Assembly: GCA_008632985.1 (NCBI GenBank)
Contig: QPGO01000264.1
Span: 62,001 to 82,219 of the forward strand
Length of the DNA: 20,219 nt
Source: Psammoneis japonica
Taxonomy: Eukaryota
Direction of reading: 5' to 3'
This document shows positions 1 through 20,219 of the stretch, in pieces (positions within the stretch are counted from its first letter, which is position 1; each line of letters opens with the position of its first letter). The position numbers and the translations under genes were made by a program. The notes under the pieces were generated by a model. The model did not search any database and was not told where the DNA came from. It saw only the letters and a list, made by a program, of their open reading frames with translations.

Positions 1-135
1 TTCCACTCAACTCAAAGATGCAATGCAAAGTGAGAGGGACACCACATGGGAGGCACCAGTGCAGTCTGTCCAGCACCAATTTGAGTTTGTCATTTGCAGC
101 AGGCACCAGTGTGGTTTTGAAATTTTTGTTGCCCA

Positions 136-238
136 GCCAGGTTGAAGACATCTTCTTCCATCTCATTTGACAATCTTGAGACTGCCATGGCCAGGTTGAA
201 GACATCTTCCATCTCACTTGGCAGTCTCAAGACTGCCA
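136..238 (+). repeat. Imperfect tandem duplication, period about 54 bp
   Basis: gccaggttgaagacatctt...gactgcca starts at 136 and again at 190; the second copy lacks one ctt and has several transitions. Confidence 0.85.
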
Positions 239-418
239 CAGTCTGCAACAAGAAACCTCCGTTTTCTCACCATGGTGAGCAAGCTGCAAAGGGAAGAAGA
301 TGACAGGTGTTGCACAGAGATTTACCTTTTTCTGCACCAACCTCATTCTTGCAATGCTTGCACGAGGCTCAAGGCTCTCCTTTGAAGGAAAGGAAAAGGA
401 AAGACCCATTTCTTTGTC

Positions 419-1930
419 TTGTCATGGAAGCAAACTGGCTCAAATCTTCTTTGTGGGATCTTGCGCCATCATCCAGAAATTGCAATGCACAACGAGCTGT
501 TCAACCCAACTGACATCTTTGTGCATTGTCCATCAATCACGAGGCATGTTGGTGAAGACCCAAATGACAAGGGCTTGCAATGGACTCACCTTGCTCGGGA
601 TCTCTGCCCAGATGGAATTCTGGAGCACATTTGGACCGGCAAGTGTGCCAGCAGCAAAGAAATCAAGGAAGGAGCAAGGCTGTAGAACTCAAGTCATTTC
701 CCAACAACTGGCCTGGCAAGAATGAAGACATCTGGAGAACGTCAATCTTGGAAAACCACTGCATCAAAAAGATCATGCTGTGCCAAGAAGATGAGCTTGC
801 AGTCTTCATTTTGATGCCACGTGCAGAAAAGAATGGACCCTGCATGAGACTCTCAAGCACCCCAAAGGTCTCAAGGTTCACACAGACCCAGCGTGCTTTC
901 AGGCATTTGTCAACAACTGCAGAGACACCTTTCAATGCAAGCACAAGTCTCCAACAGAAAAACGTGATGCTTTCCAAATCAATTGTGAGCAGATTGTAGA
1001 AGAAGAGCACTTTGATGAAAATGTCTGGCCTCTTCTCTGGCACTTCTTAGAAGTTGATGACAGTGCAACACCAAAGCGGCTCAAGGAGATTGTGGGGTAA
1101 GCTGATGATGACAAGAACCCATCAGAAATCATTTCAAGCTGTGAAGAACTCAAGTTCTGCTTCCGACATGCCAACATGATGCCTTTTCTACATGGGCATC
1201 AAGCACGATGTCTTCTGCATTCAACAAATCTGCTGGCAAGGTGAAGGCTGCTGGAGATCATCTGCTCAAGAAGGCAAGCTTCACAGTCGTTGGACAATTC
1301 TCCTCCCCATTTGCTCTAGAAGGACTCAAAGCAACACCAACAGGGTTTTGCACCGGGATGCGATCATCACCAACTTCAAAGCCAACCGGCTTTTCGAACT
1401 TGTGAGTTCCTCTCAACACTCAGTGGTGGACACTTTTGCAGAAGGTGAATGTTGGGTGCACCTTGAAAACTTTGCCTCTTCCCTGAAGGAAACTTGTTCT
1501 TCCCAGAAGCTCAAAGACACAGTGTGCGTCATTGGAATTGACGTGGACAACAAGATCTTAATTTCAAATCATGCAAAACATCAGATCAGCGACGTGCTTT
1601 GTCCATGCAAGGTTGTTTTTGTTTCCATCTCTGCCATCATGTGCTGTCATGTCTGCAGGATTTGGAGCCACCTGGTGAGCAACACTGGTCAACATGGCAA
1701 CTTTGTTGTGCTTTTTGGCGATGACATTGTTTTGGAAACAAAAGGATGGCAAGACAGAGTTGAGGCACGTTTCCACAAGATTGCAGTTCAAACAGGATTG
1801 CCCTTTGGTGCTGCGCACATCACTCTAAATGACAAGTCATTTCCCAGCTTTCCCACCTTTCCTGCTGTCCATCGATGGTGCATCAACCACTTTGACCACC
1901 TGTTGCTGAAGCAGCTCATGAGTCAGGGAG
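419..1930 (+). pseudogene. 5' part of a degenerate gene: Stf0-like sulfotransferase domain followed by a glycosyltransferase family 2-like domain
   Basis: ORF pieces WKQTGSNLLCGILRHHPEIAMHNELFNP (resembles the sulfotransferase RTGS PAPS loop) and ILLPICSR...IGIDVD...VCRIW...FVVLFGDDI...FPSFPTFPAVHRW (GT2-like DxD region). Many stops and frameshifts; no Tyr in the 272-aa ORF. The true start may lie further upstream. Confidence 0.7.
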
Positions 1931-2021
1931 CAGAGGTGCACAAATCGTCTGTTGTTGTTCGCACACGTGCATTCGCACACTCAGCGCGTGCACGAACGAC
2001 AAAACGATGAGGTGGATCATG
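1931..2021 (+). repeat. Left TIR of the hAT element
   Basis: Reverse complement of 4424-4514; the mismatches are all transitions at CA/TG/CG positions. Weaker similarity continues to about 2074 versus 4361 (ttttatggagc). Confidence 0.9.
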
Positions 2022-3013
2022 CTGGCACTTCCGCCTGTCACGGCGTGCTGTGCGTTTAAGAATTTTTATGGAGCTGAAAGTGGTTCAATTGCTGAAACGT
2101 CACACAACAGCACAATGCATCAACATCAATTCAGACAGCTCTACATCCAAAGCAGAGCAGTGATGCCTCAACCCAATGTTTCCTTTCCAATCTACAACAT
2201 CTTCTTCATTTATGATGGTGAGCAAAGTTCAGCAGCACTGTGGGCAATGGAGAAAATTCACTGTTTGTGCTCACGCCTTCATTCTTTTTCTTTGTTTTTG
2301 CTGTCAGGTGTTTCAGCGACGGCGTTTCTCAGGATGAACATTTGCCGGTGGCTGCAGTTGGTCGAGTGCGAATTGGCTTGGTCGCAACCATCATTTTGGC
2401 AAAGCAAAATGGAGCATGTTTCATGTGAGCTTGTCTTCTCTGCTGTTTGTAAATTGTGGCTTTGACAGCTGCATGTTGAAGAAATGTTCTCACCGACTCT
2501 GCTGTCTGCTGCTTGTGTAATTGCCACAGGATGTCCACTTGTGCAACTGCCACAGAAAATGTCAATGCACCCATTTGAAGTGGAGTGGGCTGTCCTGCAT
2601 GTGGTCGTGCATCAACGTCCAAAGCAGTGTGTCCATGATGATGTGGATGCAGGGTTTGCGCCCTAATTCACTGAAGCCCAAAGATGTCTGGTGTGGAACT
2701 CCGCAATTTTGTGCGTGGGAAGGTTGATGGCGAGCAAAGCATGATTGACAATGCCATGTCACGACACTTGTTGGTGTTTGGTGCACACACTGACAACGAA
2801 GCTTTTGTTTCCGCGTGCAGGAACTGGTGACTTGAGGAGATGATAGAGAGCTTTCTAGACACGTGCACATGCGACAAGACAGCAAGTCTTGGTCGCCAAT
2901 GCGATGCGATCGAGAGAACACGATGCCTTGGCTGCTCACTAGAGTCAATCCTCTCTACTTGCACCTCTCTAGCAGCCACCAGTCCACTCTCTAGAGAGAG
3001 ACAGAGCAACTGA

Positions 3014-3037
3014 CTCTCTCTCTCTCTCTCTCTCTCT
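3014..3037 (+). repeat. (CT)12 microsatellite in a CTCTAG-rich patch
   Basis: Read directly from the sequence. Confidence 0.95.
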
Positions 3038-4423
3038 GCCAGACAAGAGAGGGAGGGCCCCAAAACTTTGTCAGTTCGGTCTCTCTCTAGCTGTTTCTCT
3101 AGCTAGAGCAGAGAGGTCATGCCCGCCAACCTTGCCAGCAGCAACAGATTGGTGCATCTCCGGTCCACAATTTTGCAAAACATCAAACGAAATGTGCTGC
3201 CATGGTCTTGCAATTGTTGCCGGCAGTTTGAAGAAGATGGAGTCCAGCTGCCAGCTAGAGAGGTCGTTCCATTGTTGTCATTCAAATTTCATCTTTCATT
3301 GTTCAGCTCATGTCATGTGACACAATGGCACCAGTTGGACCACATGACATGCGATGCTCTTCAGATCCAGCGGCATCATGAATGCAGGTGCATGGCAGCA
3401 GGCAGCTCCTGTTGTGTGGTGTCTCAAGAAACGCTCGGCGTCAAAGCTGTTCATTGCCCGGATCGAACGTGAAGACAAGTGTCACACAGGACGAGCCCTG
3501 TCGCGGTCGACTGTTGAGGCTAAAGAACAAAAGAAATGGGAATCCATGATGATTGTTTCCATGTGCAAGGCACTCAGTTGGTGTGTGATTTGCACAACAG
3601 AAGGCACCAATGGGCCAGTCCAAGAAGCAGTTGCTGATGACGCCTCCTCCTTGGTTGCTTCTTCACCATTGTTGCCTTCAATGGTTTCCCTGATGATGGC
3701 ACGAGCCACTCGTTCCAAGGAAAATGAGTCAATGATGGCCTGCACATCCCCTTGGAGGCAAGCGGTGCTTGGATGCATCCATGCTTGTTGGTGCCATCCG
3801 CATTTTCCTCCAGCAACACACGCTCGGATTCATGCACAATTCCCATGCTGCATGCAGCATCTAAACCCATGGGAGCAGTGACATTTCGATGCACACCTCC
3901 GGCACCAGGCAACAGATCCAACTCAATCTGCACTCCATCGTTGGCAGCAAGTCACATGGATTTCTTGACTCCGTTTCTCTCCACCAACTTGAGGTAAAAA
4001 TGGTGTCTGGCAACAACCATTTCACCTTTTCCCTTGAATCCCTGTTCAAGCAAGTGAACAAAGGAAGCTCTCAAAGCAACAGCAGCCACCTTTTTCCCTT
4101 CTGGAACTTGGCAACAACCCAACAGCGGATGCGCGGCATTTGTGGCAATGCAGCACTGACCGATCTCTTTGCACATCAATTCACAATCACTCCAATTGCA
4201 TTGGCATTGATCACATGCCAGCAACTGTGACCTTGGCACATTGCGCGGAGCATCTGATGTCAGCACAAGTGATTGCATCATCGGGTGTGGCAGAACATGG
4301 ATGCAAACTTGTCGTTTGGTGTGCGTTGCGTCATGTCGAATTTGTAAAAATTTCGATTTTGCTCCATAAAATTTCTTGTGGGTGCAACAGGTCATGACAG
4401 ATCTTGCGTTGAAGATCTGCGCA

Positions 4424-4514
4424 CATGATCCACCTCATCGTTTTGTCGTTCGTGCGCACGCTGAGTGTGCGAATGCGCGTGTGTGAATGACAACAGACGA
4501 TTCATGCACCTCTG
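4424..4514 (-). repeat. Right TIR of the hAT element
   Basis: Inverted copy of 1931-2021. Confidence 0.9.
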
Positions 4515-5910
4515 TCAGGGAGGTGATCTGCACTTGTTTGAGCTGCACAGTTGATGGAATGCATCTTCCTTGGAAATGTCTTGCAAGCTCAGGAAGACAC
4601 TCGGCAGGGACAGCTTTGTGTGGCATGAAAAATGTGCCATCAATTGGCCAGGTCAGATCCTCACATTAAGTCTGATGAAGCTTGAACGTTTTCCAGGTGC
4701 TGGGAAACCCACTGGCCTCTGCATTGATGTTGTTGTCCCATCCTGCTGATGCAACAACAGAAGCATTCTCAAAAAGATTGCAAGTCTTTGCTCTGCCCAG
4801 CATTTGAATGTGAGATTTTGGGCTGTTGCTGATCACCCGACGGAGCCCCATCTCGCAGATGTCAGAAGGCTGGCAACTGACATGCAAGAAAAGCAAGATG
4901 ATGGCAATTGCTTTGTCAATGTGATTCACTGCAGCAAAAACTGAGGTGCAAGCTGTGCAAGAAACACTGGGCACAACTGTTCAACAGATGATTGGGTTCT
5001 TTTTCTTGATGATGATGCTGTTGCTGATGATCACATTCGTCTTTGTTGGGCAAACATCTTTCCTGTTACCTTGCAATGCATGGACTGACATTCGGCATGC
5101 CAGCAATGTCGTGTGCTTTTGAGAAACAATGACGCATCAAGCTCACCCTCCATGTGGGGCATCACTGCAAACCTTCTTGTGCGTGGCTCTCATCTTAACC
5201 ACACAATTCAGTTCAAGGATTTGCACCCAAAGACCGGAGGTGGAGAAGATGTTGATTTCATCTTTTCAGATGAAAGAGTGGTGTTGAAAGGAAGGGAACG
5301 CAATGTGCGCTGTCGTTGGCATTCCAGGTGCAACTGCATCCCATCCATGGTGGAGAGGAGGAAGAGTCTGCTGCAAACAAATTTGAGGTTGAGCCTGGGG
5401 TGACTCTTTGTGCATCACCGAGTGGCCAGAGAAATTGCATTTTTGCCTGCCAAACTGGGTCGAATTCATTGCATGCATTCTTCCTGTTGTTGGCTGTTTT
5501 TCCAGCAACTGCAATGGAGCTCTCCATTCTGTTCTCTTCATTGCTGTCCTGGATCCCTGGGTGAAAGAGTCCACGTTTTACACTGCTGCACTTGCCAATC
5601 CATGGAATGATGGGTCATTGTTGCGAGCATCGCTTGTCACTCTCGGTGCAAGTGCGGTGATCTCATCGCAAGAAATTGCCCACTTGCTTGCACTCATTTG
5701 GCATCTAAGTCTTTTGTCATTGAATGGATTGGTTTGATGGACAGGCAAAGACGCAAGTGCTTGACATCCAGCTGCGTGCAGGTGTTTTCTTCCTTGTCAA
5801 TTTTTTTGTCACTTGCCACCTTTGTGAGGTGTTTCTTGATCCTTTTGCGGTGCTTCTTCACTGTGGCTGTTGATGAAGCAAGGAATTTGATCATTCACTT
5901 TTGTGGATAA
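4515..5910 (+). pseudogene. 3' part of the same glycosyltransferase-2-like pseudogene
   Basis: Continues QGGDLHLFELHS*WNA, then FFLDDD, GITANLLVRGS...HPKTGGGEDVDF and GDSLCITEWPEK...LPNWVEF, followed by hydrophobic C-terminal segments. Multiple frameshifts and stops. Confidence 0.7.
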
Positions 5911-6002
5911 GTTGGCATTAGTGTGTGCATAACTGTCATCGTGCATTAATATTTTGAGGATTTCAAACGCAGTGGGACAACTCAGCAGATCTACTTCGTC
6001 CT

Positions 6003-9000
6003 TCACGCAGCCTGTGCTACACCTTTTCCGGCATCCACAAGGCTTACCCACAGAGAGAAGACAGTGTTGAGCCGCATCTTGTCTTCCACTCCCTTGAAAA
6101 GAGCAAATCCTTCTGTTCTGTATTCTGTCAATGGATCCAGATACTGGTGTTGCCGCAAAATTACGCTTTCTTTCAAACCTTCCATTGACTGCAAGTGATC
6201 ACTCCATGCATTGTCCATTGACACAAGAGCAATGTAGTTTGCTGATCGAGAAAGAGATTCCGGTGAAAGAGATTTAATCTTTGAGTTGAAAACCTCCTCA
6301 ATGGCCACATTGATGAGAAATTTCACCCCATTTTTCGTCCCGTCCAGACAAATCGCTTGTCTTCAACAAGGGTCCAACCGGCGGGAAAAACTGACCAATC
6401 TTCTCTGCTACCTTCTCGACATTAACCGAGCCATCTTCACCAACCTGAGCCTTCACGATGTCTTCCACTGTGTCCTTGTTGTACGTTTTCACTATTTCCA
6501 GAGTATCTCCAGGGCGTCGAAAATAAAATGCTACGGCGACGGTTGTAGATCAAACTGCGTTGGTCGTTGAGCACCTCGTCAAATTTAAAGACTTCCCCGC
6601 GTATTTCGCGGTATTTTCCTTCCACGGCTCGTTGAACCTTGTCGATCGCTTCAGTGATTTGATCTGCTTCCACCGGCATGTCGTCCGATACTCGAAACAT
6701 TTTCAGCATTTTCTGGAGACTGTCACCGCCAAAAATAACAAACGACCGCGTAGCTGCATGTTGATGCGAGAACTTTCATGGCGATTAGTCCCCAAGACAT
6801 ACAAATCACCGCTTTTCAGAACCCGCTCTTTTTCTTCTTCCAAGACGGGTTTGTACACACTTTTTACAGCCTCCGCAGCGTCACGAAGTTTAATGATGAG
6901 ATCGGGATCTTCTTCGTTTTCGGTAGTGTCAGTTGCAACCGTCAAGATTTCGTCTAAATCGATAGCCGTAAGGTCTTTTCCAATCTCTTTCTTGATGGCG
7001 GAAGCCGCTTCCTTCAATGAAAGAACGACATCATCATCGATAGGACAAGGGAAATAGTCTTCAGAAGGCGAAGGAGGGAGCGTCGAAGCCTCCTCCTCAG
7101 ACAAAACTCCTTGCTCTACAAGAACAGACCTTGTTTTGATTCGAGCCATTGTTGTGGGACAACCACCCAGTAGAACCACCCAGTAGAATATCCTACCACC
7201 CCCAGCCATGTTTGTCGCAACCGTCACTACACCAACTCGTCCAGTTTGTGCGACGATTTCGGATTCGCGCGGCGCATTCTTTGGCGATGCATTGAGTAGC
7301 TCAGCCTCGATCCCCTCTTCTGCAAGGGCAGCTACAACCATTTCACTCTGTGCTACAGACGTGGTTCCGATTAGGCAGGGTCGACCATCCTCTTGGCCAC
7401 CACCGACGCCGAGTACTTCTTTGATCAGGGCATCATTTGCGGCCTTTCGTGTCTTGAATGCTACATCAGGATAATCGCGACGCGCAACTGGAAGCGCCGT
7501 AGGCACAGGCGTCACCTTTAGGTTGTACGTCAATTCCAATTCGTCGGCATCGGCCATTGCAGTTCCTGTCATGCCGGACAAGCGAGAATGTTCTGTTGGA
7601 GATAGCAAGAGAAGTGCGCCAGCGTTTTGACCCTCAAGTGCGAAGCTGGGCGCACGATTCGTCCTAAAGTAGAAGGAGTAGCGTACCTGATAAGTCACTT
7701 TTGCAATTACTTGACTTTGCTGCGAGACTTCGATACCCTCTTTGGCTTCGATGCTTTGGTGAAGGCCGTCCGACCACCTACGCCCATCCAAAACTCGCCC
7801 AGTAAATGCATCGATGATTCCAACACCATTCTCCTTACCATTCTCATCAGTCAGAATGGTGTACTCGACGTCTTTGTTGAAGAGCTCCTTGGCTTTCACC
7901 GTCTGCCTGGATAGCGAAAAGGCTATCAATACCCAATGCATTTTCTGCGTCGCGGTATCCCGTTTCAGTACGTACACAATTCTTATTCTTCTCATCCACT
8001 GTGTACTGGACATCTTTTCCAGGGCTTGTGCCAGGGTGCTGGCCGTTGCATACTTGTTGGCAGGCGCAGCAACCTGTTTCGAGATAACCAATGGGGTCCT
8101 CGCCTCATCAATCAATACCGAATCCGCCTCATCCACAACCCAAAAACCATTGAACTCTCCGGCACCCCCGGGCAAGATAGTTTGCGCAGGTGACAATGCC
8201 AAGTGGTCACGAAGGTAGTCAAATCCGAGTTCCGAATTCGTCACGTAGACAACATTACAAGCATACGACTTTTTCCGTTGCTCTTCTGTCATACCACTCT
8301 GAATAAGACCAACAGTCAATCCCAAGAATCGATGGACTTGGCCCATTTTCTCCATATCTCTTCTCGCCAAATAGTCGTTTTACGGTAATGACAAAGGAGG
8401 TGTTGCCTGTCAAGGCATTGACATAGCAAGGCAACGTTGACACGAGAGTCTTTCCCTCTCCAGTGGCCATTTCGGTCAGTCTTCCATCGTGCAGAATCAA
8501 ACCACCTAGCATCTGTAAATCGTAATGCCGCAATTCCAAAACGCGCCTTTGAAAAAAGTGAAAAAATTGGAATGAGAAGCGGCCGCTATGGAAACGGTTT
8601 TAGAGCCAGAACTATCTTGCTTTCTTGTATCTCACCATGCAGCTTCCCTGACCACCGCGAAGGCTTCTTCCAACAAAGGACCATTCACGTCTTCTCCTTT
8701 CTTGAGTCTCTCATGAAATTCGTTAGTTTTGGCCAGCAATTCATCATCGTCTAATTCCTCGATCGTTTCTTCCAAGCCATTGATCCGGTCGACGCGAGTC
8801 TTGAGGCCGGCCAGGTGCTTGTCGTTTTGAGCCTTTCATGTCTTTTCATCCGTTCTCTCCATGAAGTCATCAAAAAGGACATTTTCAATGCACCATTGGG
8901 ACATGATAAATTGGTGTTTCTGGCAGAAGCAACCGAGTGTGATCGGGCAAAGGAAACCGCAGCTTTCTTTTGAGGAAAACAAACGAGGATGCCTAATATC

Positions 9001-9585
9001 CCTGGTCCGTTCCTGGTCTCACTTATGTGAGACAGTGCCGAAATCTCGGTCATAGTCATTCATCGGGTCATTCAACCCCCTGTCTCACATTTGTGAGACC
9101 AGGATTTTATTTACATCAACGTCATCCTATGCTATATAAAATTGTGTTTTGCACGTCCAATGCAACATCCTGCATGAAAAACCCACTTTTAAAATGGCAG
9201 CTCCCAAATGTTTGTTCTGTACAATCTACGTGTTTTCCAGCACAAATCCTGGTCTCACATTTCTGAGGCCAGGGCCACATTTGCACCTAAAATGCCTCTC
9301 CCTTCCGGGTGCATCATGGAAAGCCGCTTTAGATTGTTCAAACGACTTCAACCACCAGACACTTGCGTTTGAGCATGCTTTGACTCCTTCGGTCTGCTCA
9401 GGTGTCAAATGACCGGCTCCTGTGTTGTTGTGGGTCACTGAAAACCTGGTCTCACTCCAGTGAGACCAGAATTCGCGGACCAGGGATGCAGGCAGAAAGC
9501 CACAACAGTGCCGCTGCTGTGACACAGAATGATGACCACGTCCCCTGACTGCCCGACACAAACCAGGCTTGCACAGCGGCTTCAT
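6003..9585 (-). pseudogene. secA: Nuclear-encoded plastid-type preprotein translocase SecA, disrupted
   Basis: Motifs [94 protein letters not shown] and FDEVLNDQR. Introns at about 8547-8633 and 7593-7686. Predicted ATG at 9585 once the MITE is removed, giving MKPLC...GFLPILGILVCFPQKKAAVSFARS (AVS-F resembles the ASAFAP cleavage motif). In-frame TGA near 8838, several frameshifts, a 13-bp duplication and internal deletions. Confidence 0.9.
9000..9485. mobile_element. piggyBac-like MITE (486 bp) inserted in the secA presequence
   Basis: Ends CCCTGGTCCG...CGGACCAGGG; flanks ATAT (8996-8999) and ATGC (9486-9489); four internal palindromes of the type CCTGGTCTCAC-N4-GTGAGACCAGG. Excision with a 4-bp TSD restores an open secA N-terminus. 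The superfamily call rests on the CCC...GGG ends and the 4-bp TSD. Confidence 0.75.
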
Positions 9586-9949
9586 CACGGAAACGGTGAG
9601 CGTGTTTGTCTGTGTAAGAATCACTCAGGTGTGCCACATGAAAGAGGAATTAGGAATTTTAGAATCCTCTAATTGTGGAAAAATGCACACTGTCACCACA
9701 CACAAAATTTGTTGCTCAGAACCGCAGTCAACATGAATCGACAACAGCCGGTTGTTTTTCATGCAAACTGCTGACACTGAGGAAAAAATGAGACATGTTG
9801 TCGTTCATGGTGTTGTCGAGGCAATGTGTCATTTTTTCCTTAGTGTGAGATGTTTTGATGTCGTCATTGTCGACGTGGTTGACAATGGTGGATGGAATCT
9901 CACTCACCTCATTTCTCCTTGTTCATCTGTGTAGAATTCTATGCAAAGA

Positions 9950-10900
9950 ACACACCAGGTGTCGGCATCAATTTCTTCCCACCATGTGTGCCACCATTGT
10001 CACTCCATTGACCATTGCTGTTTTTCTCGGCATGTTTCTTGAAGTGTCTTGCATCCTTCAGCTCCCCAATGTGTTGCACCACCTGATTGTGTGGTGCCTT
10101 TTCCTGAGTGGAGTTGCGCAGACCAACAGTTTGGTTTTTTGCAGCCGCTCAGATCAACCACACTGCTTGTTGTCAAGAAATCCACCATCGGGCGAATGGC
10201 TCAAGGACCCAGGGGAAATGCAACTGCATCTCAATGATTCCGACTTCTTTGCAACATAGAAGGTAATCACAGACAACAGCACTAGAGTGTTGCCACTGCA
10301 ATTTTAACTTTCGCAGCTGCTTTTGCAGTCGAGTCCAACAAGTTTTCTGGCTCGCCCAAGAACTGGACAACATTGAGCCATGGGAATCTGTTTCTGGCAA
10401 GTGACACAACTCCAACAGTGAATTCACAAGCAAGCCATGCAGCCAGTCTATAAATCTGACACTTGCAAGACAATTCTCAGAGAGCACAACACTCAAACAC
10501 CGACATGCCAGTTGTTCAAGGGGTGCAGCTTTGAGCTCTCCTGCAGAGTGGCATCATTGTTGCACCAAAACAAGCTAAACAACAAAGCCTTGCTCTACAA
10601 AATTTACAGAGCAAGAGCTCCAATGCATGCAGCAAGGAATCCAGCTGCTGGAAAACTGGGTCCATGAGTGCACAAGCCACAAGCTCGCCATCTGCCAACA
10701 TTTCTCGGTCTTCCCCTGCCAGTTGCACAATGAGCGGTCCACCTTCCTTCCACCAAAATGGTTTCCACTCAACAGGTCTCCAAGGCAAGTCTGCTGTGAG
10801 GATGAGAAATGTTGTGCCAGTTCTTGTTCTTGATGAGCTGCCATCCCTCAACATTCTTGGAATGACGCTGAACGCCGATGCATTGTGCATGGGCAGAAAC
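9950..10900 (-). other. TpA-depleted degenerate sequence with coding-like fragments, identity unknown
   Basis: Minus-strand ORF fragments 10516-10890 and 10173-10496 look protein-like but I cannot assign a family. ORF length is inflated here because TAA/TAG are lost. Confidence 0.25.
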
Positions 10901-11749
10901 TCACTTCTGAATCAATTTTTGACAGAAAAAGCCCATCATGAAACAACCCCACACAATGAGACTCAGAAATGAAAAAAGAATGTAAAAACAACCCTCTGAT
11001 TGTCTCTGTCTTTTGCCATTGTCATGGTGACATGACAGCGGTGGATGTGAAAAAAGAGGTGAGAGATTGGGCAATGAGCACAGCTCACCATTCTCCATGA
11101 AACGCGTGTTGAAACCACTGTGCCTGCGGGGAGCATTGACCACTTGTGTGTCTTTCTTTGTGGCTGTGGGTGGGTGTGTGCGTGCCATTGCATGCTGCAT
11201 TGCCTGCACTGCGCACACGTGCAGCATCAGTGAAGACTCTACAGTGCAGTGGTGGCGTGGCCACCACACCGGTGACACAGATGACCATTGTGTTTGATGG
11301 CTCATGCCATTTTTGGGGCTGTGGCGAGGTGCGCGGACACTCTTTTTTTTCAATTTATCGCCAAAATGGCGCATCGCACAAACTCTCTCACTGTTCGACA
11401 TGTCCTTTCCAATGTGACCATTTCGTGCAGAATTCACGACATGTTGTCTTCATTCAAAGCTGGGTGCATTTTTCAACATGCCACACTGGCAACCCCAATT
11501 TTACAACACTTTCGAGCTCTCCTGAAAAACCGTTCCACGCACCCGTCGCAGGGAATTTGTCGATTTTTTAGGATGTCCCCATGACCTCTAATGTCCTCAA
11601 TGATCATTCCCCAAATCCGAACACATCATTCACACCAAATGACCCATGCCATTCTAAAATCTGAGGGACACACTTTCAAAAGCAGACAAACTGCCCGACC
11701 CCCTGACTGCCCGACTGCACAACTGCACAACCCCCCGACACGAAAAAGA

Positions 11750-13015
11750 CTGCAATCACCAACCACTGAGTGGTCAATGAAAAGTCTGCAATCACCAACC
11801 ACTGAGAGTGTCTTTTCCAGTGAGTCGCAAACACAAACCTGTGTCTGCATGTCTTCCGATGCAAATGAGATTCACAAAAAATCATCATTTTTGGTGGATC
11901 GCAAACATGTTTTTTGCACCTTGGATGCGATCCACCTTCAAAATCGCAAACAACAATCGCAAATTTCTGGTGCAAAAAGGGTGCAGAAAACCTGTGGAAA
12001 GTGTGCGTCACCATGACGAGACAACAATCGATGCTTTCTTGATGAGAGGACCTTGCAGAGGCCCAACAACTGACACTTTGTTGCATCTTATGAACTTGCA
12101 CACGACGCGTTCCAGGTCCAGGTGGGACCTCGCACTGCTGAACTGTGACATCGACAGTTTTTTGAATCGCGTCGCATGTCGCGCACGCACATTTCTACGT
12201 GATTTTGGCGAAATTTTGTGTGATTTTACAGTGCAATTGTCAGGCTATCCATTGAACAACTTTTAACATTTTTTTCTTCTGCGCCATTCTCGAGTGTCTC
12301 AAGAATGGCGCAGGGCAGGCGCGTTGTCCAAAACTTCGAGTGCCAACATGGATGGATGCACTGCAAACTTGGCCGTTTTTTTTATGTCGAAGACAAATGC
12401 ATCCATTGGCCAGAGTACGAACTACAGAGCTCGCACGTAGAATTCTATGGGGCAAATGTCACAAAAAGTCCCACCTGGGACTGGAACCCGTCACACGGCC
12501 GCATCGAGATGTGAGAGGAGAGCGGACATGTGGGGGGTTTGTGGGGTCAGAAGAGAACAAGGCACAATTCGCACGACAACATTTCACTTGTTTTTGCAAT
12601 GTGGAATGACTTTCACAACATGGCAACACATGGGCACACACTGTGAATCATTCTCCAGTGACAGACGTCGACACATCTTTGAATGGATTGTGGTTTGTGT
12701 TGTGTGTTGCGCTCAAAGCCGCCATGGCATCATGCAATGTTCAACAACTCCATCCTGCCATCAGTTGGTTGTTGATGTTCATGCACGAAGTTGCTTGTTG
12801 CCTCAACGTCTGCCCAAACATCGGCCGAATGTGAGTGCGATTGTGGTCGACTGAAAATGATGGTCGCGCGCAGAACTGCAAACTTGTGCATGGCAGTCTG
12901 TTCGCTTGCCCTTTTTGGTCATGTTCCTGTGTTTGTGTTTGCGACTCACTGGAAAAGATGCTCTGAGTGGTCAATGAAAAGTCTGCAATCACCAACCACT
13001 GAGTGGTCAATGAAA
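11750..13015 (+). repeat. Three tandem 36-bp units (ctgcaatcaccaaccactgagtggtcaatgaaaagt), the second split by the Harbinger insertion
   Basis: Unit 1 at 11750-11785, unit 2 at 11786-11805 plus 12967-12982, unit 3 at 12983-13015. Each contains the palindrome ACCAC-TGA-GTGGT. Confidence 0.9.
11806..12963. mobile_element. PIF/Harbinger-like non-autonomous element, 1158 bp
   Basis: 33-bp TIRs GAG(TG/CA)TCTTTTCCAGTGAGTCGCAAACACAAAC at 11806-11838 and 12931-12963; 3-bp TSD TGA. The empty site CAC-TGA-GTG is visible in the sister repeat units and resembles the PIF target consensus CWCTTAGWG. Confidence 0.85.
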
Positions 13016-13017
13016 TT

Positions 13018-13101
13018 GAACTTTCGCGCGGAGCGCGAACTTTCGGCGAAAGTTGCCCCCTTTTGGAGCGCGAAGCGCTCCAACTTTCGGCTGAAAGTTG
13101 G
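13018..13101. other. Cluster of four closely packed DNA hairpins/palindromes
   Basis: ttcgcgc-GGA-gcgcgaa (13023-13039), aactttcg-G-cgaaagtt (13038-13054), ttggagcgc-GAA-gcgctccaa (13063-13083), ccaactttc-GGCT-gaaagttgg (13080-13101). Confidence 0.9.
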
Positions 13102-13256
13102 GAAACGGAGGGGCTCGCGCAGGAAAAAAAGTTCGTCCGTTGGTGTGTCCGTTGAGTCTTGAATGTGAATCTTGTAAAGAGTGAGTCGTGCGTTGAGTCG
13201 TCTTCAGTGAAACTGCCGCCACCGAAAACACGAAACGCGAAACCTCGCCATGGGCT

Positions 13257-13973
13257 ATGAAACAATGTCGCGCCGTCGCGAGAAGCCCTGGTGTCAAAGT
13301 AAGATACATGAAGAAGTGCATCATGGATGGGAAAACCGCCGACACCGCAATCCCTGTAGAAGAGCAGGACGTCGACGAATCGGCATCAATCAATCAGTCA
13401 AGTACCAGTTGTGTTGTGTCAAGTGTGCCAAGTGCCAATTGTGGTGTTGCTCATGTGCCAGTGTCTTCAGCACCAAATGGCATTACAGACAGTGTGGAAG
13501 CAACAAAGAAGAAACGAGGACGTCCTCGGAAGATCCGATCGCCCAAATTCGCGGTCTCGGATGCGCCGTTGTTTTATACACCGGATCTTCGAAAGAATTT
13601 GATGTCGTCGGAAAGCCAACACCAAAGTCAAGGCCGAAGCGTGGGTGGAATAGAAATGCACACAACCCAAACCAAGCTGCTGAGAAAGAGTTTGCAGGTG
13701 TAGTTTCAGATCTCTGCCAATCCAGACTCGATTCAATACCCAAGTTCCGCGACGGTGTCTTGTTGAAGGCTCGGCTTGAATTTGCTTTTTCTGGGAAGAG
13801 CCTCAAGGATGCAGGAGACATCGGACATCGACAACCTCTGTAAATTTGTTTTGGACAGCTTAAACACAGTGTTGTATCATGATGATTGGCAAGTTGTAGA
13901 GTTGTCGGCGCGAAAAGTACTTGCTTCGTCCGAATCTACCGGACGTACAGTCGTTACATTGAATGAAATTTGA
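13257..13973 (+). pseudogene. rusA: RusA-family Holliday junction resolvase with N-terminal AT-hook, two frameshifts
   Basis: KKKRGRPRK AT-hook; RusA N-terminus FDVVGKPTPKSRPKR...NPN; catalytic region DIDNLCKFVLDSLNTVLYHDDWQVVELSARK. Frameshifts at about 13575 and at about 13817-13830. The start may instead be the ATG at 13323. Confidence 0.85.
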
Positions 13974-14371
13974 AACAGATAGTTCTATAAATGTGCTGTA
14001 GCACCTAATCACTTGATGTGTGAGTTACTTTGCCTAGTTTCATTTTACTTTAGCCTACTTGTATCGCGATGAAGACGTTCTAGAGATGCTAGCGAGAAAA
14101 GCACTTGTTCGTACGAATCGACTGGTCGTTGCACTAAACCAAATTTGAAATAGCATTTTTCACTTGACACACATCTTACCTTGCTCTACTTGTATCTTTA
14201 TGATTGGCGCGTTGTGGAGTCATCAACGAGAAAAGCACACTCACTTCGTCCGAATCGACCGGACGCACAGTCGTTGCACGGCAACAAGTTTGAAATAGAA
14301 ATTTCTACAGCACAAGCTTCTATTAGAACTGTAGCACAATTGCTTGACATGTGTTTTACTTTGGCCCACTT
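13873..14371 (+). repeat. Three diverged tandem copies of the RusA 3' end plus the intergenic spacer
   Basis: Units at about 13873-14060, 14061-14190 (most degraded) and 14191-14371 share tgtatc, gaaaag(t/c)ac, cgaatc, gtcgtt(a/g)ca and tttgaaa; units 1 and 3 also share ctgtagcac and ttttacttt(a/g)gcc(t/c)actt. Confidence 0.85.
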
Positions 14372-16886
14372 CTTTGCATGTGGGTTCACGGGTTTGTTGG
14401 GACTGTTGCTGGCAGCTTTGGATGTGACCTTTTTCACGAATCCTGCCTGGATGCTCTGTCACTGCTCGCCGATGGTTGACACATTCTGAATCTTCCTTGT
14501 GCACCAGAACTCGAGCCTCAAGACCTGTGAAGCAAGGTTGTGTTCTTTCCTTCTTCTTGTCATCCAGTGGGTTCTTCATGCCACCGTCTTCTTCCATCTT
14601 CCTCATTCTTTCCAGGCAAGTGTTCTGAACAGCGCAGCAAACATTGTGAAAATCCACGGATTTGTCATCATGCAGACGAATCGTGCGCCACTGGTCTTCC
14701 GTCATGACGCATTCTAGGAGCTCAAAAGCTGCTTTAAACTTCTGTGGCTCTGCCTCACTGTTTGGAAACTTGAGGTGCAAAAGCCGCTCCTTGGCCAGCG
14801 CTGAAAGGTGACCAAGCTGCTTGAAGAAAAATTGGGCACACATGCAAAGAGACTTTTGCGCCTGTGCTGTCAGCCAAGCCGTCCACTTGATCATGCAATG
14901 TCAGCTTCTTTGTCTTTTTGTTTGATTTCTTCTTGCTTGCAAACCAAGTCAAGAACAGTGTCACAACAGTGGGAGATCGTGGCTTTCTCGTGGAGGCTGT
15001 GACAGGCTGAGTCGCAGTGGCTGACTCGTCAGAATCAACACGACATTGAGAAGTGGCCGGCACATCATCATCAGCAGCAGCAGCATCGGCATCGGCATGT
15101 CTGGTGTGCTTGCAGTGCTGGTGTCAACAGAGTCATTTGGAGTGGAGCCGGTGTTTTGATCAATGACTTTGCACTCGATGCCGTCATCTCGATTGGATGC
15201 TTTTTCATCCGCCAAATCCGTCATGCTGTCTTCCTCCTCTGGTGACAGGAGTTTGACGTTCATTTTCCTGCTCAGCTGATTGGCCTCAAGCTGAGCAATC
15301 TCCAAGTTGCAAAGGGCATGGGCTTGCTCAGAAAGCTTGGTGCATTGTGCATCACATGCCAACAATGCACATGACAGCAGCTCATTCTGATGCTTCAGCT
15401 GCACAGCAAGGTTGAGATCACTCAAAAGATCAGGATTGCGGTCTCAAAAGCTCTCATCCATTTTCTTTCCCCAGATCCAAAGCACTTGTGAGGTGTCAGC
15501 AACATTGCCATCACCAATCTTTGCTTCTGCCAATGGCTCTGGCGGAGTTTTTTGGAAACTTCAGCATGATGCTGAATCATGGCTGCCATGCAGGAGCACT
15601 AGAACAGATGAAGCTCCCCACCTGGCATGAATTGTTTGAGAGTGCCCAACATCACACACAATTTTTCAATGAGCCATTCAATGTCCTCTTGCACATGGCT
15701 CCCGACACATTCCAAGTTCGGAGCACATTTCTTGGTGGGAGCATCATCCCAGCCCATCATTGCATTGGCCACTGGAACAGTGAGCTGAGGTGCAATGCGT
15801 TTGCAAGTCTTGCCGTTGGGAGCTCTGCACGCCCATCCAACCAGAGTGTCAGCTTCTTCAACAGACACTCCTTGATGTGAATTCAAAAATGCAGCCATGC
15901 TGACTCCAATGGACTCAGAAGAACAATCAGTCTGCAGAACTGGGTTGACCTTGCCTCGAATGACACTGGTCGACTTTGCTGCAATGCACTTGTCAGAGAT
16001 GCTCCATGAGTCTGGAGATGCGTGCTTGTGGAGCTCCTTTTCCATGTGGTCTGGATGACAAAGACCTTTCTCACATGCATGGAAGCACGCAAAAGCACAA
16101 CAGAAAGAGACAAGAGCTTTTGTTTGGTGGGAAAAGGAGTCCATGCAAATCTGCTGTTTTGGGCTCACACCGCGCAGCTTCCAAATTCTCATGGAACAAA
16201 TCCCAGAACCATTTGTCATGACATTGATGCCTCATTTCCCCTCCACATCCGGCAGCCATGGTGCTTGCCAAAATCCAGCAATGCTGCTGAAGAGGACCAT
16301 TGTTCATCATTGTCCAACGTCGAACAAAATTGCATTGAAGAGCGAGTGAGAGACGCAATGTCTCTGCGTCGTTTGTGAGTGAACCATTCTCACATCTCAA
16401 TGTCGCACTTCTGTCTGTGACACAAGAATGGCATTTTGCTGCTTGGCTTGAAACAAGTGGCAAAGTCCTGCATTCGCTGCACTCGATGCTCAGCAAGTTG
16501 GCTTTGCCAGCGGCCTTTGCGGCATCACTGCACAGATCCTTGCACCACTTGTCCTCTTCTTCCCAGTCAGGGTGCTTAGGGAGCTTCATTTTTAGTTCTT
16601 CTTTCACCTTTCCAAAAATTTGCTGCTTTGTGTCAACTTTTATGAGCCTGTTGTTGGGATTGTCACGCCGACAGACTGGCTCTTCTGACAAGTGCTTGCT
16701 GAAGTGCATCATGAGTGCCCTGAGATGGCACCCGTCAACATGACACTCCTCCAATTGGTTGAACAGTTTCTCTTCATTTTTGTCTTGAATCGTGTCAAAC
16801 GTTTTGATTGCAGACTTTTCGCTGCTTGTGGCAGAAGAGGCTCGAGACGCCTTGTTGATGGGCGCCTCCAAGACCAAAGTGGGCAT
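14366..16886 (-). pseudogene. Degenerate tyrosine recombinase (Crypton-like), about 840 codons
   Basis: Ordered motif remnants AAG[C]GGE (TGT from CGT would give catalytic R-GGE), EPKT, D[C]SSESIG (SxxR position), xGW and KT[C]KR (TGC from TAC would give catalytic Y). ATG at 16886; stop reconstructed at 14366-14368. The call depends on back-mutating the regional signature. Confidence 0.6.
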
Positions 16887-17107
16887 CCTGCGCGGCTGAT
16901 CTGTGGCAGCGCATGGCTTCTGTGATGGCTGTGTGGCTGCTCTGCTTTTTTGTGAGACGACAGCTCTGCTGGTGCAACTGCATGTCTCCTCTCGAACACA
17001 GCACAGTGGCGCAGAAGTCTTGCAGGTGGGTGGTGAGTCTGATGGAAAATGTTCAGGCGCGGTTCAAGGTCACATGTTTATTCAGACATGAGGTGCTCTA
17101 TTACAGT

Positions 17108-17148
17108 CAACTTTCAGAGAACTTTCGGGTTACTTCTTCTGAAAGTTG
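17108..17148. promoter_or_regulatory. Perfect 11-bp inverted repeat (caactttcaga-N19-tctgaaagttg) with a third internal gaactttcgg; putative binding site or element end
   Basis: Read directly; same core as the hairpins at 13038-13054 and 13080-13101. Function is inferred. Confidence 0.55.
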
Positions 17149-17389
17149 CCGTTCTCTTATTACGGAAGAAAATTTCAACTCCGCCAAAAAAGTGTATGAA
17201 TTTGACAGTACGACAATCACGTAGGTTAGACAAATGAGCCGGTGTTGCAAAAACTGACCTGCAATCGATCGCATTCATTTTTTTTTATTTCGTCGACAAC
17301 ACTTGCATCTGCATCAACAGTGATTGCCGGGCAAAACGATCAAAAATGCAATAGAGACTGAAAGCTGTAGGCCCCTACCTTCTAACAAG

Positions 17390-19625
17390 ATGAAAGAATC
17401 TACGCAAAGACGCAGTTCAAGCTTCTCGCGCTCGTCGCGATGCTTGGAAGCTTATCAAATCAGTTTCACTTGTTCGCACATTGGGAGATATGTGGCTGGA
17501 TCCAAGAGAAAGATTTCGTGGTAAGCATTAGGTTGGTGCTTGTTGTTTTGGGCTGGCTGTACATCACTGGAATCTGAAACGAGCGACGGCATACAGTAGG
17601 GTGTCATCGTTGTCGACGGGGTCGGAGACGCTCAATTTGCGGTACGGTACACAGTCGGAGTCTCGCGGGACAGGAAAAGTGGCGCGCTTTCGACCGGCGC
17701 CTTTTCTTCGTATTTCTTATTTCTTCATTTACGAAGCAACGTATTATTTTGATATCGTGTTTTTTGTTCGTATGTTATTTGGTCTTCTTGTATGAAATCG
17801 ACCGTTGTTTGTTATAAATATATTCAGTGCAGTATATATCACTCGTCTCTATCGCGTTCTTTATGGCGCGTGGACATTTCCTCAGATTTACCAAGATTTA
17901 CCTCATTTTTTGCTCCGTCGTGAACAACAGGCGGTTTGGGTTGATGGACTCAGTATGCTTAGAGTCATCTCGCGGTGGACAACGCGAGAGTGTTCCCTCA
18001 GGTCAAGATCATGAGGTAAAGATATCCGTAAATCGTCGGTAGCTTTCCCATAGAGACTTTCGTTGAACTATTATCGACCTCACAACTAACTTTGTGTACT
18101 TTTTCATACGTTTCATAGATGCATCTCATCTGGTCAGTGCAGAGCAAGAAGTCGCGCGTCGTGTGGAACAACACTGATATTACAAGCCTCATCAGATCTG
18201 GAAACAAGGCTACAAGTACGCACTCCCATGTGGAATATGCTTGGGAGGGAAGTATGGGTATGAAGTTCAGAATTGTTGCACACGCTAACCCGTCTCTAGG
18301 ACGTCGACAGTACGATCTATTCATATGCGAGAAAAGCTTCGTTTCTCTGCCTCAGCTGTCTCAAATATTGTCAAGATATTACCAGAGTCATCAGATTGTG
18401 TCCGCTAACTTAAAAGATTGCCATGAGCAGGAGGCAAAGACTGATGTCCCCGTGAAGTGTTCTCTTCCTAGAGTTGATAGCCGTTTTAGGTCGCGACAAT
18501 GTGGCCGTGACCGTCCACTCACTCGTCAGCGACAGAATCGTCTTGCGGCCGCTGGATTTTCATGTGTGGATTCTTTTGACGAGCTCCAGTCAGATTTGTA
18601 TACGTCAAGTCTTGACAGACTCAGAGCGGAGATGGCTTCGTCTGTTCCACAGACTGAAGACATGGTGTCTAGAGCGATCATAGACGCCTTTGCAGAAGAC
18701 CACGAAAACAGTTATCATTCCGTCTTATCCGCGGAAGAACACGAGCTTGACGCTACTAAATTCGAAGCCGAAGTTCTTTGGGAAACAAAACTTTGGGTCG
18801 AGAAAAACGGAGATTTTAATGGCTTGTACGCAGAAGAATCGAGGTTGCGATACATGCGCGAACAGGTCAACTGCATTGTCTCACATGTGCGGCATCAAAG
18901 ATTGTCTGCGACAGACGCCGCTGTCATACTGCGTAGTACTGCTGCAATCTTAGACTTGAATCTTTCGAAACCGCTTCAAAGGAATACGGTCATCGTTTCT
19001 GGCCTGAGTAACGATGTCAACTGCGAAGATATGATAGAGGCTATGCAAGAATTTGGATGCATCCAAAGAGCTGCCTTAGTGGAAGGTCAAGGCGCTGGTA
19101 TGTAGTTGTGGAGAATCAAATGCAGATATTTGTACCACGACTTTTTGTTCATTCCTCTTCTTTTCACCGTTGCATGGTACAGGGATTTGTCGATACGGAT
19201 CATCGTTGGCTGTTAGTCTTGCGTTCAAGGCAGCAAATCAAAACCAACTGACAATTTCAAATTCAAAACCTACTCTATTTGACTTGAATGAATCGGACAG
19301 CGCCGGCATACTCGACAGTCACAACGTTCCTACAAGTGATCAAGAAACCAAGCTTGCAAGGCGAACTCGGTCTGATGAGCGACCCTTGTCACCGCTTCGT
19401 CACTTGTTCCAGCCCACGGAGCAGGATTTGTCGGAGTTTGACGTCTTTACTCCTCACAGAAGGTCGTTTTCTTTCTACGAAACTCATCGTAAACATCTTC
19501 ACCACCGCTCGTCCGGTGAAGCGCCAGGAGCTCAGATTCTATCACCTTCGGAGAGAACAACGAGTACGACGTCATCAGTGGAGGTAGATGACCTCCATGT
19601 CCTTTCCTTGAGAGTCCCTGAATGA
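17390..19625 (+). CDS. Intact 4-exon hypothetical protein (545 aa) with an RRM-like segment in the C-terminal half
   Basis: Exons 17390-17520, 17931-18015, 18119-19097 and 19183-19625. All introns are GT-AG and phases are consistent (1638 nt); CTAAC branch site at 18086. TVIVSGLSNDVNCEDMIEAMQEFGCI...GICRY resembles RNP2/RNP1. Normal TA and CG content. Confidence 0.8.
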
Positions 19626-19719
19626 AGTGACTGGGACATACTTGTCCTTCATTGTGAATTTCAAGCTGCATTTGTCAAAGTATTCTTCTCATTAAAATAG
19701 AATGGAGTCGTACAACGTG

Positions 19720-20219
19720 TTAGTCGTCTGTTGTTTGACTGGCCCCGGAGAAGCAGCGCAAGTTGAAACCACAACAGTCACCGCACTCGTACACATAAAA
19801 GAAACAACTGCTCCCAGCAGTGGCAGGCTTCAAAGATGAGCGACACCGGTCAGCGCTTCGCATCCCTTGGACGAGCACATCATGTCGGAGTTTTGTGCCT
19901 GGGTTGCTCCATTGCCAGGCATTGTTGCCGACCAAGGTTGTCACTGACAAGGGAAACTGCCCAAAGCTCTGGCTTTCTCTGTCTTTTATGTGATTTTGGA
20001 CCGATTGTTGAAACGACGGCGGCGACAAATCCCTGTCCATTGGTTGGACAGCGACTGCGAGTTATGTGAAATGCATTGGCACAGCAGCTTCGGCGGCACT
20101 GACCATGCAGTTTGGGTTCAGTCCGACTGCTTGGCAAGAGACAACGGGGTCAGTTCAGGGTGCTGCAGCAACTGGCCTTGCGGGTGTTGCACTTGGAGCT
20201 TTGGCTGCTTTGGTGGCCA
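19720..20219 (-). pseudogene. Possible 3' end of a degenerate minus-strand gene running off the window
   Basis: ORF 19720-20040 plus an upstream Ala/Pro-rich frame with a stop; TpA depletion resumes here. No family recognised. Confidence 0.3.

Follow-up and report, generated by a model that had tools for sequence, protein, structure and literature searches.

What can strip one dinucleotide from kilobases of nuclear DNA while the blocks in between keep it? The question is raised by a stretch of 20,219 nucleotides (nt) of contig QPGO01000264.1 (hereafter the window), in which TA (TpA) occurs only 362 times, with an observed/expected ratio (O/E) of 0.26 over the whole 20,219 bases and corresponding ratios of 0.68 for CG, 1.53 for CA and 1.45 for TG. 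An earlier, sequence-only reading had described long stretches almost free of TA and had proposed that TpA had been mutated there to TpG or CpA. Our bioinformatics analyses indicate that a real, regional mutational process of this kind, TpA>TpG/CpA, has very probably acted on nuclear DNA of the diatom lineage; the best overall explanation, which we regard as likely, is a targeted hypermutation of duplicated or foreign-looking DNA that acts on double strands, probably by adenine deamination. The first TA of the window stands at 323, as had been stated, and the three longest TA-free runs measure 977 nt (15600-16577), 865 nt (14735-15600) and 729 nt (12446-13175); by hand arithmetic, at the rate of the normal segments (38.4 TA per kb), a 977-nt gap has a chance of about e^-37. 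Segmentation with two states, based on whether T is followed by A, divides the window as listed below, with bounds that fall within about 100 nt of those first proposed.

1-2841, unstranded: TA-depleted block 1a, 17 TAs (O/E 0.09), CG O/E 0.38, CA 1.74, TG 1.66
2844-3104, unstranded: TA island around a (CT)n microsatellite, eight TAs (six CTAG, one ATAG, one CTAC)
3117-5904, unstranded: TA-depleted block 1b, 11 TAs (O/E 0.06), CG O/E 0.47, CA 1.84, TG 1.70
5908-9330, minus strand: normal block with secA, TA O/E 0.48
9334-13173, unstranded: TA-depleted block 2, partly repetitive, 33 TAs (O/E 0.13), CG O/E 0.63
13175-14357, unstranded: normal block with the open reading frame (ORF) 13250-13843 (plus strand), TA O/E 0.52, CG 1.13
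14360-17078, minus strand: TA-depleted block 3, a chain of minus-strand open frames, six TAs (O/E 0.04)
17079-19796, plus strand: normal block with ORFs 18119-19105 and 19170-19625, TA O/E 0.61, CG 1.13
19809-20214, unstranded: another TA-depleted block, of which the window includes only the beginning, two TAs (O/E 0.10)

Within this one 20-kb window, the depletion is confined to five discrete, sharply bounded blocks, and three blocks are normal. The normal blocks surround expressed-looking genes and have a TA O/E of 0.48-0.61. The loss of CpG that had been noticed in the same stretches is borne out, with a CG O/E of 0.38-0.63 in the depleted blocks versus 0.95-1.13 in the normal ones, and the CA and TG ratios of the depleted blocks reach 1.41-1.84. 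Along the window, the TA and CG ratios are correlated (Spearman 0.73, 400-nt windows). The (CT)n microsatellite of the island (2993-3090) is bordered by short palindromes of the CTAGAG type, and the TAs of the island are almost all CTAG.

The direction of the change can be read from a gene in the first block, for which tyrosine codons (TAY, where Y is a pyrimidine) were chosen because they are the sole sense codons obliged to contain TA. A search with the ORF at 1180-2007 gave 223 homologues (E<=0.001), the long ones being proteins of about 700-1000 amino acids (aa); in a Pfam scan of ten members of this family, a GT2 domain was found in five and a sulfotransferase domain in one of these. Alignment with the homologues located two parts of a decayed gene.

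317-2016, plus strand: N-terminal part (homologue residues ~6-564), found by tblastn, frames broken and Tyr codons converted
4495-5813, plus strand: C-terminal part (residues ~529-981, GT2 region), found by tblastn, holding DLHLFELHS and HPKTGGGED

The two parts are spread over several frames, with 2.4 kb and an inverted duplication between them, and the largest block, 1-5904, is a decayed copy of a host-type gene for a sulfotransferase / unnamed domain / GT2 protein of ~1000 aa, with no recognisable transposon. Two peptides in which His or Cys had been suspected to replace Tyr, DLHLFELHS (4525-4551, plus strand) and HPKTGGGED (5224-5250, plus strand), align to the conserved ...Y..F.LYS and YPKTGGGED of the homologues, and the 272-aa and 271-aa ORFs singled out with them are indeed devoid of Tyr (17 His and 13 Cys in the former, 11 His and 19 Cys in the latter); the KTCKR peptide is present at 15797-15811 (minus strand), outside any homologue alignment. 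Taking as conserved a column in which at least three aligned homologues agree at >=60%, the decayed copy (317-5813, 37 homologues) has 23 conserved-Tyr columns, and these now read His at ten (CAY), Cys at seven (TGY), Trp at one (TGG) and a stop at one (TGA), the remainder being one each of Tyr (the TA at 323), Val, Phe and Leu. Such CAY, TGY, TGG or TGA codons therefore occupy 19/23 columns, versus His at 2/29 in the secA gene of the same window, which served as a control (38 homologues; Tyr at 21 of its 29 columns, and six others where tblastn is out of frame). None of the 23 homologues covering at least four of the eight conserved-Tyr profile columns has His or Cys at a conserved Tyr. The 18 of 150 homologues that are low in Tyr (<=1.0%) were considered as further hypermutated copies and rejected, none having His or Cys at a conserved Tyr and all being simply short fragments. 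Conserved Arg columns of the decayed gene changed at 11 of 39 (His four, Gln three, stop two, Trp one, Cys one), and those of secA show two stops in 55 columns and no His, Gln, Cys or Trp; because a change of Arg to His, Gln, Cys, Trp or stop is the expected trace of CGN>CAN/TGN, the CpG decay is polarised too.

The dinucleotide balance leads to the same direction of change. Counts per kb were taken in the depleted DNA (12,205 nt, excluding an insert described below), and two references served for comparison, namely the normal blocks, 7,324 nt in all, and 17 homologous loci from metagenomes, which total 91,718 nt.

TA: depleted 4.9, normal blocks 38.4, 17 loci 50.4
CG: depleted 28.1, normal blocks 56.0, 17 loci 49.0
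CA: depleted 104.5, normal blocks 77.0, 17 loci 71.0
TG: depleted 108.1, normal blocks 67.0, 17 loci 71.2
GC: depleted 71.1, normal blocks 53.4, 17 loci 48.0
AA: depleted 75.3, normal blocks 76.7, 17 loci 83.4

The loss of TA and CG together amounts to 61.3 per kb against the normal blocks or 66.3 against the 17 loci, and the gain of CA and TG to 68.5 or 70.3; this match indicates that two transitions, TA>CA/TG and CG>CA/TG, explain the composition of the depleted blocks. The GC dinucleotide rises by ~18-23 per kb, as TAC>TGC and GTA>GCA predict. The Tyr codons, which polarise the change, and the balanced counts thus uphold the proposal that TA was lost by A>G at TpA on either strand. They agree as well with the remark that the change runs opposite to fungal repeat-induced point mutation (RIP), TA standing at 4.9 versus 38.4 per kb with CA and TG up by 68.5 per kb.

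Selection on coding sequence does not account for the pattern, since the non-coding DNA of the normal blocks keeps a TA O/E of 0.47-0.84, in agreement with the regional character first claimed for the depletion.

7587-7686: intron-like stretch, TA O/E 0.84
8546-8634: intron, TA O/E 0.49
1,040 nt upstream of the 18119 ORF: TA O/E 0.70
514 nt downstream of the 13250 ORF: TA O/E 0.71
flanks of secA: TA O/E 0.47 and 0.71

The 17 homologous loci all have a TA O/E of 0.46-0.80, the lowest 1-kb window among them being 0.38.

The nature of the DNA is given by the secA gene in the first normal block.

~6006-9059 (coding), minus strand: nuclear, intron-bearing secA copy with the Pfam families SecA_DEAD, P-loop_SecA and SecA_PP_bind

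Its best relatives are nuclear diatom SecA proteins, in named and unnamed entries, at 60-68% identity, followed by those of Tribonema and plants at 40-46%, and a read contig of run X2 skips 8546-8634, with GT..AG ends on the gene strand, and 7587-7686. This kinship, together with the spliced read contig, identifies the window as intron-bearing nuclear DNA of a diatom lineage. The two conserved Tyr that read His in secA stand at 6149, adjoining the block edge, and at 8817, ~500 nt inside the block; a second, diverged copy of the gene in the reads has an A at 6149 and encodes Tyr (TAC) where the window has His (CAC). The gene itself looks damaged: a short stretch duplicated in tandem near 7177-7194 interrupts the conserved NMAGRGTDILLGG motif, and the reading frame is lost in the PPXD stretch, near 7850-8000. 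Between the window and the second copy, to which the spliced X2 contig belongs, there are 3-4% substitutions together with indels at positions 6512, 7177-7184, 7899 (with 31 letters extra) and 8378, and the secA segment of the window may be a decaying allele or a paralogous segment.

Both strands have been hit equally, with 1306 TG and 1275 CA in the four long blocks. No strand-coordinated tracts of TG or CA were found in these blocks (runs-test z -1.1 to +1.0), in which control pairs such as AA/TT are clustered, and this random order excludes an origin on one strand, be it a retro-copied edited transcript or long single-strand patches. The TAs that survive follow a sequence rule. Among the 60 outside the insert, none is RTAY (R, purine), versus 89 of 281 in the normal blocks (Fisher p 2e-9), and YTAR makes up 27/60 versus 45/281 (p 6e-6); a two-strand survival model gives a loss term, by the base 3' of the A, of 1.6-1.7 for C, 2.0-2.4 for T, 0.64-0.67 for G and 0.28-0.52 for A. 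The most increased products are TGC and GCA, at about twofold, to both of which CpG decay contributes. The favoured site is T-A-pyrimidine, as seen in few sites and against a coding-rich baseline. In the island at 2844-3104, the six CTAGs among its eight TAs are of the resistant YTAR type and RTAY is absent (0/8).

The order of events can be followed where DNA has been duplicated.

1931-2074, plus strand: arm 1 of the inverted duplication, 79% identical to its partner 4361-4514 over 154 nt
4361-4514, minus strand: arm 2, partner of 1931-2074

In 146 aligned columns, the arms show three CA<->TG doublet differences, and CpG is touched by 8/21 of the other differences; the doublets imply that an ancestral TA was resolved differently in the two arms, so that TA was lost after the duplication. 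A second repeat pair has one member on either side of a block edge; TA in the normal-block copy stands opposite CA or TG in the other four times, and the reverse is seen once. A further time mark lies inside block 2, where the gap at 12200-12460 that had been left between two TA-poor stretches turned out to be an inserted element resembling a miniature inverted-repeat transposable element (MITE).

12104-12492, unstranded: MITE-like insert of 389 nt with 25-nt terminal inverted repeats (88% complementary), in the bin of highest word depth

It keeps nine TAs (O/E 0.34) and 24 CpGs (O/E 1.07) inside a TA-free block, and it is missing from read contigs that stem from other copies of the repeat in which it sits, with joints at 12101->12495, 12096->12499 and 12070->12501. 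Because it retains TAs and normal CpG, the insert is younger than the hypermutation or exempt from it. Units of 41 nt, direct and inverted and with one pair 100% identical, are found at 11730-11838 and 12931-13015, on both sides of the insert-bearing repeat, and may represent the termini of some larger repeated element.

The claim that the depletion is transposon-associated and repeat-targeted holds in part. Repeats are present, namely the inverted duplication and the MITE-like insert, and read contigs pile up at 10.7-13.3 kb, where the summed word depth is very high (10673-13340; maximum 76,569 in the bin 12007-12673, versus 66-106 in most bins), which is a hint of repetitiveness and not a copy number. 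On the other hand, the block 1-5904 carries the host-type gene copy and no Pfam transposon domain, so that much of the affected DNA is a host-type gene copy or of unassigned origin. For a six-frame Pfam scan, 125 stretches of 70 aa or more between stops were defined; the 105 that were scanned (the other 20 lie in 5958-8751 and 18456-19674, within the normal blocks) gave no family at the curated cut-off outside secA and no transposon or viral domain; secA alone was matched when the 15 longest ORFs were compared with Pfam, and Rfam gave 0 matches at the gathering threshold. A "retroviral SH3" match at 5581-5796 (minus strand) was discarded as being at chance level (E 0.13). The ORF 16233-16868 of block 3 is 40% identical over 215 residues to one unnamed metagenome protein; its homologue P0122 contains no Pfam family, and a profile search against PDB returned only four matches at chance level (E 0.17-0.62), for which reason an identification as a tyrosine recombinase was dropped.

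The sequence itself is found in reads. In run X1, assembled read contigs (Logan k-mer contigs) match 478-1729, 2229-2907, 2884-3620, 4428-6053, 15007-15741 and 15712-17136 with 0 differences; the contigs on TA-free DNA are 679-1626 nt long, and matches of this length and exactness require accurate reads. In run X2, whose kind was guessed to be DNA, one contig covers 13279-13874 without differences and another lies on 18247-18555, and the depleted blocks have little or no cover, which is not usable as evidence of silence. No RNA run is listed for the stretch. Several observations weigh against the best explanation given at the outset. Run X1 may be the assembly's own source, with no platform on record, and is not a validation on a second platform. 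The read differences listed (40/1286) are rich in transitions but include few TA<->CA/TG changes, and those in both directions, so that their small number and mixed character give no polarity; the totals of changes are roughly balanced between the two directions (A>G 207 against G>A 236, T>C 223 against C>T 240). The context rule is drawn from 60 TAs and a coding-rich baseline, and some of these TAs may have arisen anew. The windows at 11801 and 12801 are TA-free yet normal in CpG, which makes the decay of TA and that of CpG separable and not strictly coupled. As to the target, alignment of viral contigs with the gene family confirmed 0/287 candidate stretches and with the 16233-16868 ORF 0/141, and the depleted blocks are without a transposon or viral protein domain, so that the target class differs from, or is not matched to, that of the viral case in Bigelowiella natans discussed below.

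In the mechanism that we propose, a regionally targeted hypermutation turned TpA into TpG or CpA (A:T>G:C, on either strand) to near saturation, with CpG decaying to TpG/CpA in the same blocks. The agent would be an enzyme whose substrate is the double-stranded DNA of the chromosome in regions that are duplicated or look foreign, the leading candidate being a DNA adenine deaminase of the ADAT2/TadA kind, which would convert A to inosine, read as G. The outcome would be the destruction of coding capacity, with Tyr changed to His or Cys and TAA/TAG stops and TATA-like signals lost. A deaminase of this kind was among the candidates of the sequence-only reading and is compatible with the observations; the choice of an adenine deaminase is made by analogy and is a tentative one. 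The natural substrate of TadA and of ADAT2-ADAT3 is A34 after an invariant U33, hence in a U-A context, and the bacterial TadA site is U-A-C-G; this site fits the T-A-C/T preference seen here, the link being one of signature.

Of the other explanations, a thymine route fares best, although we consider it unlikely. In this route, a TET/JBP-type oxidase would make 5-hydroxymethyluracil or 5-formyluracil at TpA in silenced DNA, and mispairing with G or misrepair would then yield T>C. 5-Formyluracil is mutagenic towards T>C, and the hydroxymethyluracil of dinoflagellates prefers TpA; a full-text search found no literature on dinoflagellate hydroxymethyluracil at TpA. T>C at TpA is A>G at TpA on the other strand and cannot be told apart from it in sequence, the strand symmetry and the RTA/TAY context are compatible with both readings, and the CpG-depleted blocks are as expected of base-modified DNA. 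However, nothing here speaks for thymine modification in diatoms, and the sole experimental precedent proposes adenine deamination, itself a proposal only in the available text (bioRxiv 10.64898/2026.01.13.699255).

The sequence-only reading had put forward another candidate, error-prone repair of the DNA polymerase eta (Pol-eta) type at T:G mismatches of methylated DNA, by which A>G at TpA would be a by-product of the repair of deaminated 5-methylcytosine (5mC). A>G transitions are a known Pol-eta error, and the correlation of TA and CG ratios along the window counts in its favour. The Pol-eta signature, however, is WA>WG (W, A or T) and includes AA, which is not depleted at 75.3 versus 76.7 per kb; the candidate fits poorly in other respects as well, TA loss being near-complete and CpG loss only about half, the windows at 11801 and 12801 having lost TA with normal CpG, and the contrast of RTAY (0/60) with YTAR (27/60) implying a rule on the 3' base that is not known for Pol-eta. 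We hold Pol-eta repair to be very improbable.

Just as little credence is due to an artefact of sequencing, base-calling or polishing of modified DNA, in which TAs present in the cell would have been read as CA or TG. The platform of the source is not recorded, and the one run in which the stretch is found may be that from which the assembly was made. Against this, the k-mer contigs match the TA-free stretches without a difference, the insert within a TA-free block retains its nine TAs, the surviving TAs obey a sequence rule, the duplicated arms differ in outcome, and CA or TG occurs at random among single sites, a choice that an artefact would need to fix site by site.

The weakest explanation, to which we attach next to no probability, is that RNA was hyperedited from A to I by an ADAR-like enzyme or an enzyme of the fungal ADAT type and copied back into DNA, or that a genome-wide bias is held in check by selection on genes: a retro-copied transcript would show A>G on one strand only, and neither strand bias nor tracts are seen; TAG is among the best-surviving contexts, against the preference of ADAR for a 3' G; the decayed gene retains its 2.4-kb interruption and the block edges are sharp; and a uniform bias masked by selection is excluded by the TA kept in gene-adjacent non-coding DNA. 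What speaks for RNA editing is that known RNA editors favour a UA context, as stated in the Discussion of the same preprint (bioRxiv 10.64898/2026.01.13.699255).

Targeted double-strand hypermutation, as proposed here, can be compared with several known systems. The closest is that of B. natans, where integrated giant-virus and virophage DNA is affected, and the statement of the sequence-only reading that no description was known has been overtaken by a 2026 preprint in which, as far as its text is available, the same signature was measured (bioRxiv 10.64898/2026.01.13.699255). In mutation-accumulation lines of this alga, 231/302 new nuclear point mutations fell in two integrated viral regions; of these 231, 230 were A>G or T>C and without exception struck TpA, the rate being ~6e-7 per site per generation, ~1000-fold above background. 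Clusters poor in TpA and rich in CpA and TpG are reported from elsewhere in the genome, and a low-TpA subgroup of 324 predicted coding sequences has a mean TpA frequency of 0.0018 (bioRxiv 10.64898/2026.01.13.699255). Mettrop et al. propose, without a test, an ADAT2-like DNA adenine deaminase and cite DNA editing by amphioxus ADAT2 (bioRxiv 10.64898/2026.01.13.699255). A full-text literature search for TpA hypermutation in diatoms or elsewhere yielded this preprint as the only relevant source. As described there, the two cases share A:T>G:C at TpA, giving TpG or CpA according to the strand, the restriction to discrete nuclear regions, and a long-term footprint of low TpA with high CpA and TpG. 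They differ in lineage, B. natans being a chlorarachniophyte (Rhizaria) and the present DNA of the diatom lineage (stramenopile); in degree, the main B. natans region being given a Rho of 0.45 for TpA versus an O/E of 0.04-0.13 here; and in target, viral there, and a host-type gene copy and repeats here, with viral relatives confirmed for none of the candidate stretches. The rate in B. natans was reported from de novo mutations, whereas here a footprint is read from sequence, and the available text of the preprint is silent on CpG, trinucleotide context and diatoms, whereas CpG decay and a T-A-pyrimidine preference are seen here.

The window thus holds TpA hypermutation of a kind described only in 2026, now in a diatom, near saturation, accompanied by CpG decay and in DNA not established as viral. 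Fungal RIP is similar in that regional, saturating transitions on both strands wreck duplicated or foreign genes in situ, the arms here having been mutated independently after duplication; it differs in its chemistry, the change being from C to T, for the most part at CpA, so that new TpA arises (bioRxiv 10.64898/2026.01.13.699255 and general background), whereas here TpA is destroyed and CpA/TpG created. The decay of CpG through 5mC is matched by the CpG O/E of 0.38-0.63, the gain of TpG/CpA and the 11/39 changed Arg columns, but it cannot remove TpA and covers only 21-28 of the 68-70 per kb gained by CA and TG, which is less than half. Hypermutation by deaminases directed at mobile or foreign nucleic acids is likewise known in animals, where APOBEC and ADAR edit retroelements and viruses. 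Their substrates are single strands or RNA, on which they leave clusters biased to one strand, APOBEC changing C to T; here, neither strand bias nor clustering is seen, and TAG survives best.

From an evolutionary point of view, it is possible, although doubtful, that diatoms own a RIP-like defence in which adenine deamination at T-A-pyrimidine is aimed, together with cytosine methylation, at duplicated, foreign or silenced segments and proceeds to saturation. If so, TpA hypermutation, taken together with Bigelowiella, would be an old and widespread defence of the stramenopile-alveolate-rhizarian (SAR) supergroup and not one alga's curiosity. Diatoms are ecologically dominant, and their model species can be manipulated genetically, so that diatom genetics would open the mechanism to direct tests of the deaminase, its trigger and its relation to methylation and silencing. 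A natural adenine editor of double-stranded DNA with a T-A-Y context would also interest the base-editing field. Targeted A:T>G:C hypermutation of nuclear DNA first became known, as far as its text is available, from the 2026 chlorarachniophyte preprint (bioRxiv 10.64898/2026.01.13.699255), and the diatom footprint, if it holds, would extend the process beyond one lineage and beyond viral inserts and would make it able to erase a dinucleotide from kilobases.

There is also a consequence for annotation, since TA-free blocks hide decayed genes and breed long spurious ORFs. TA-free DNA keeps only TGA as a stop, so that each of the six frames carries long, overlapping ORFs; the list for the window has 52 ORFs of 100 aa or more, and those in the depleted blocks are mostly by-products and a trap for gene callers. 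In the normal blocks, the ORFs at 13250-13843 and 18119-19625 (both plus strand) matched no Pfam family, and an overlapping frame of 148 aa at 13257-13703 (plus strand) contains an AT-hook-like KKKRGRPRK stretch that scores below threshold. Among 5.8 billion clusters, only one homologue of the 328-aa ORF (18119-19105) was found, at 49% identity.

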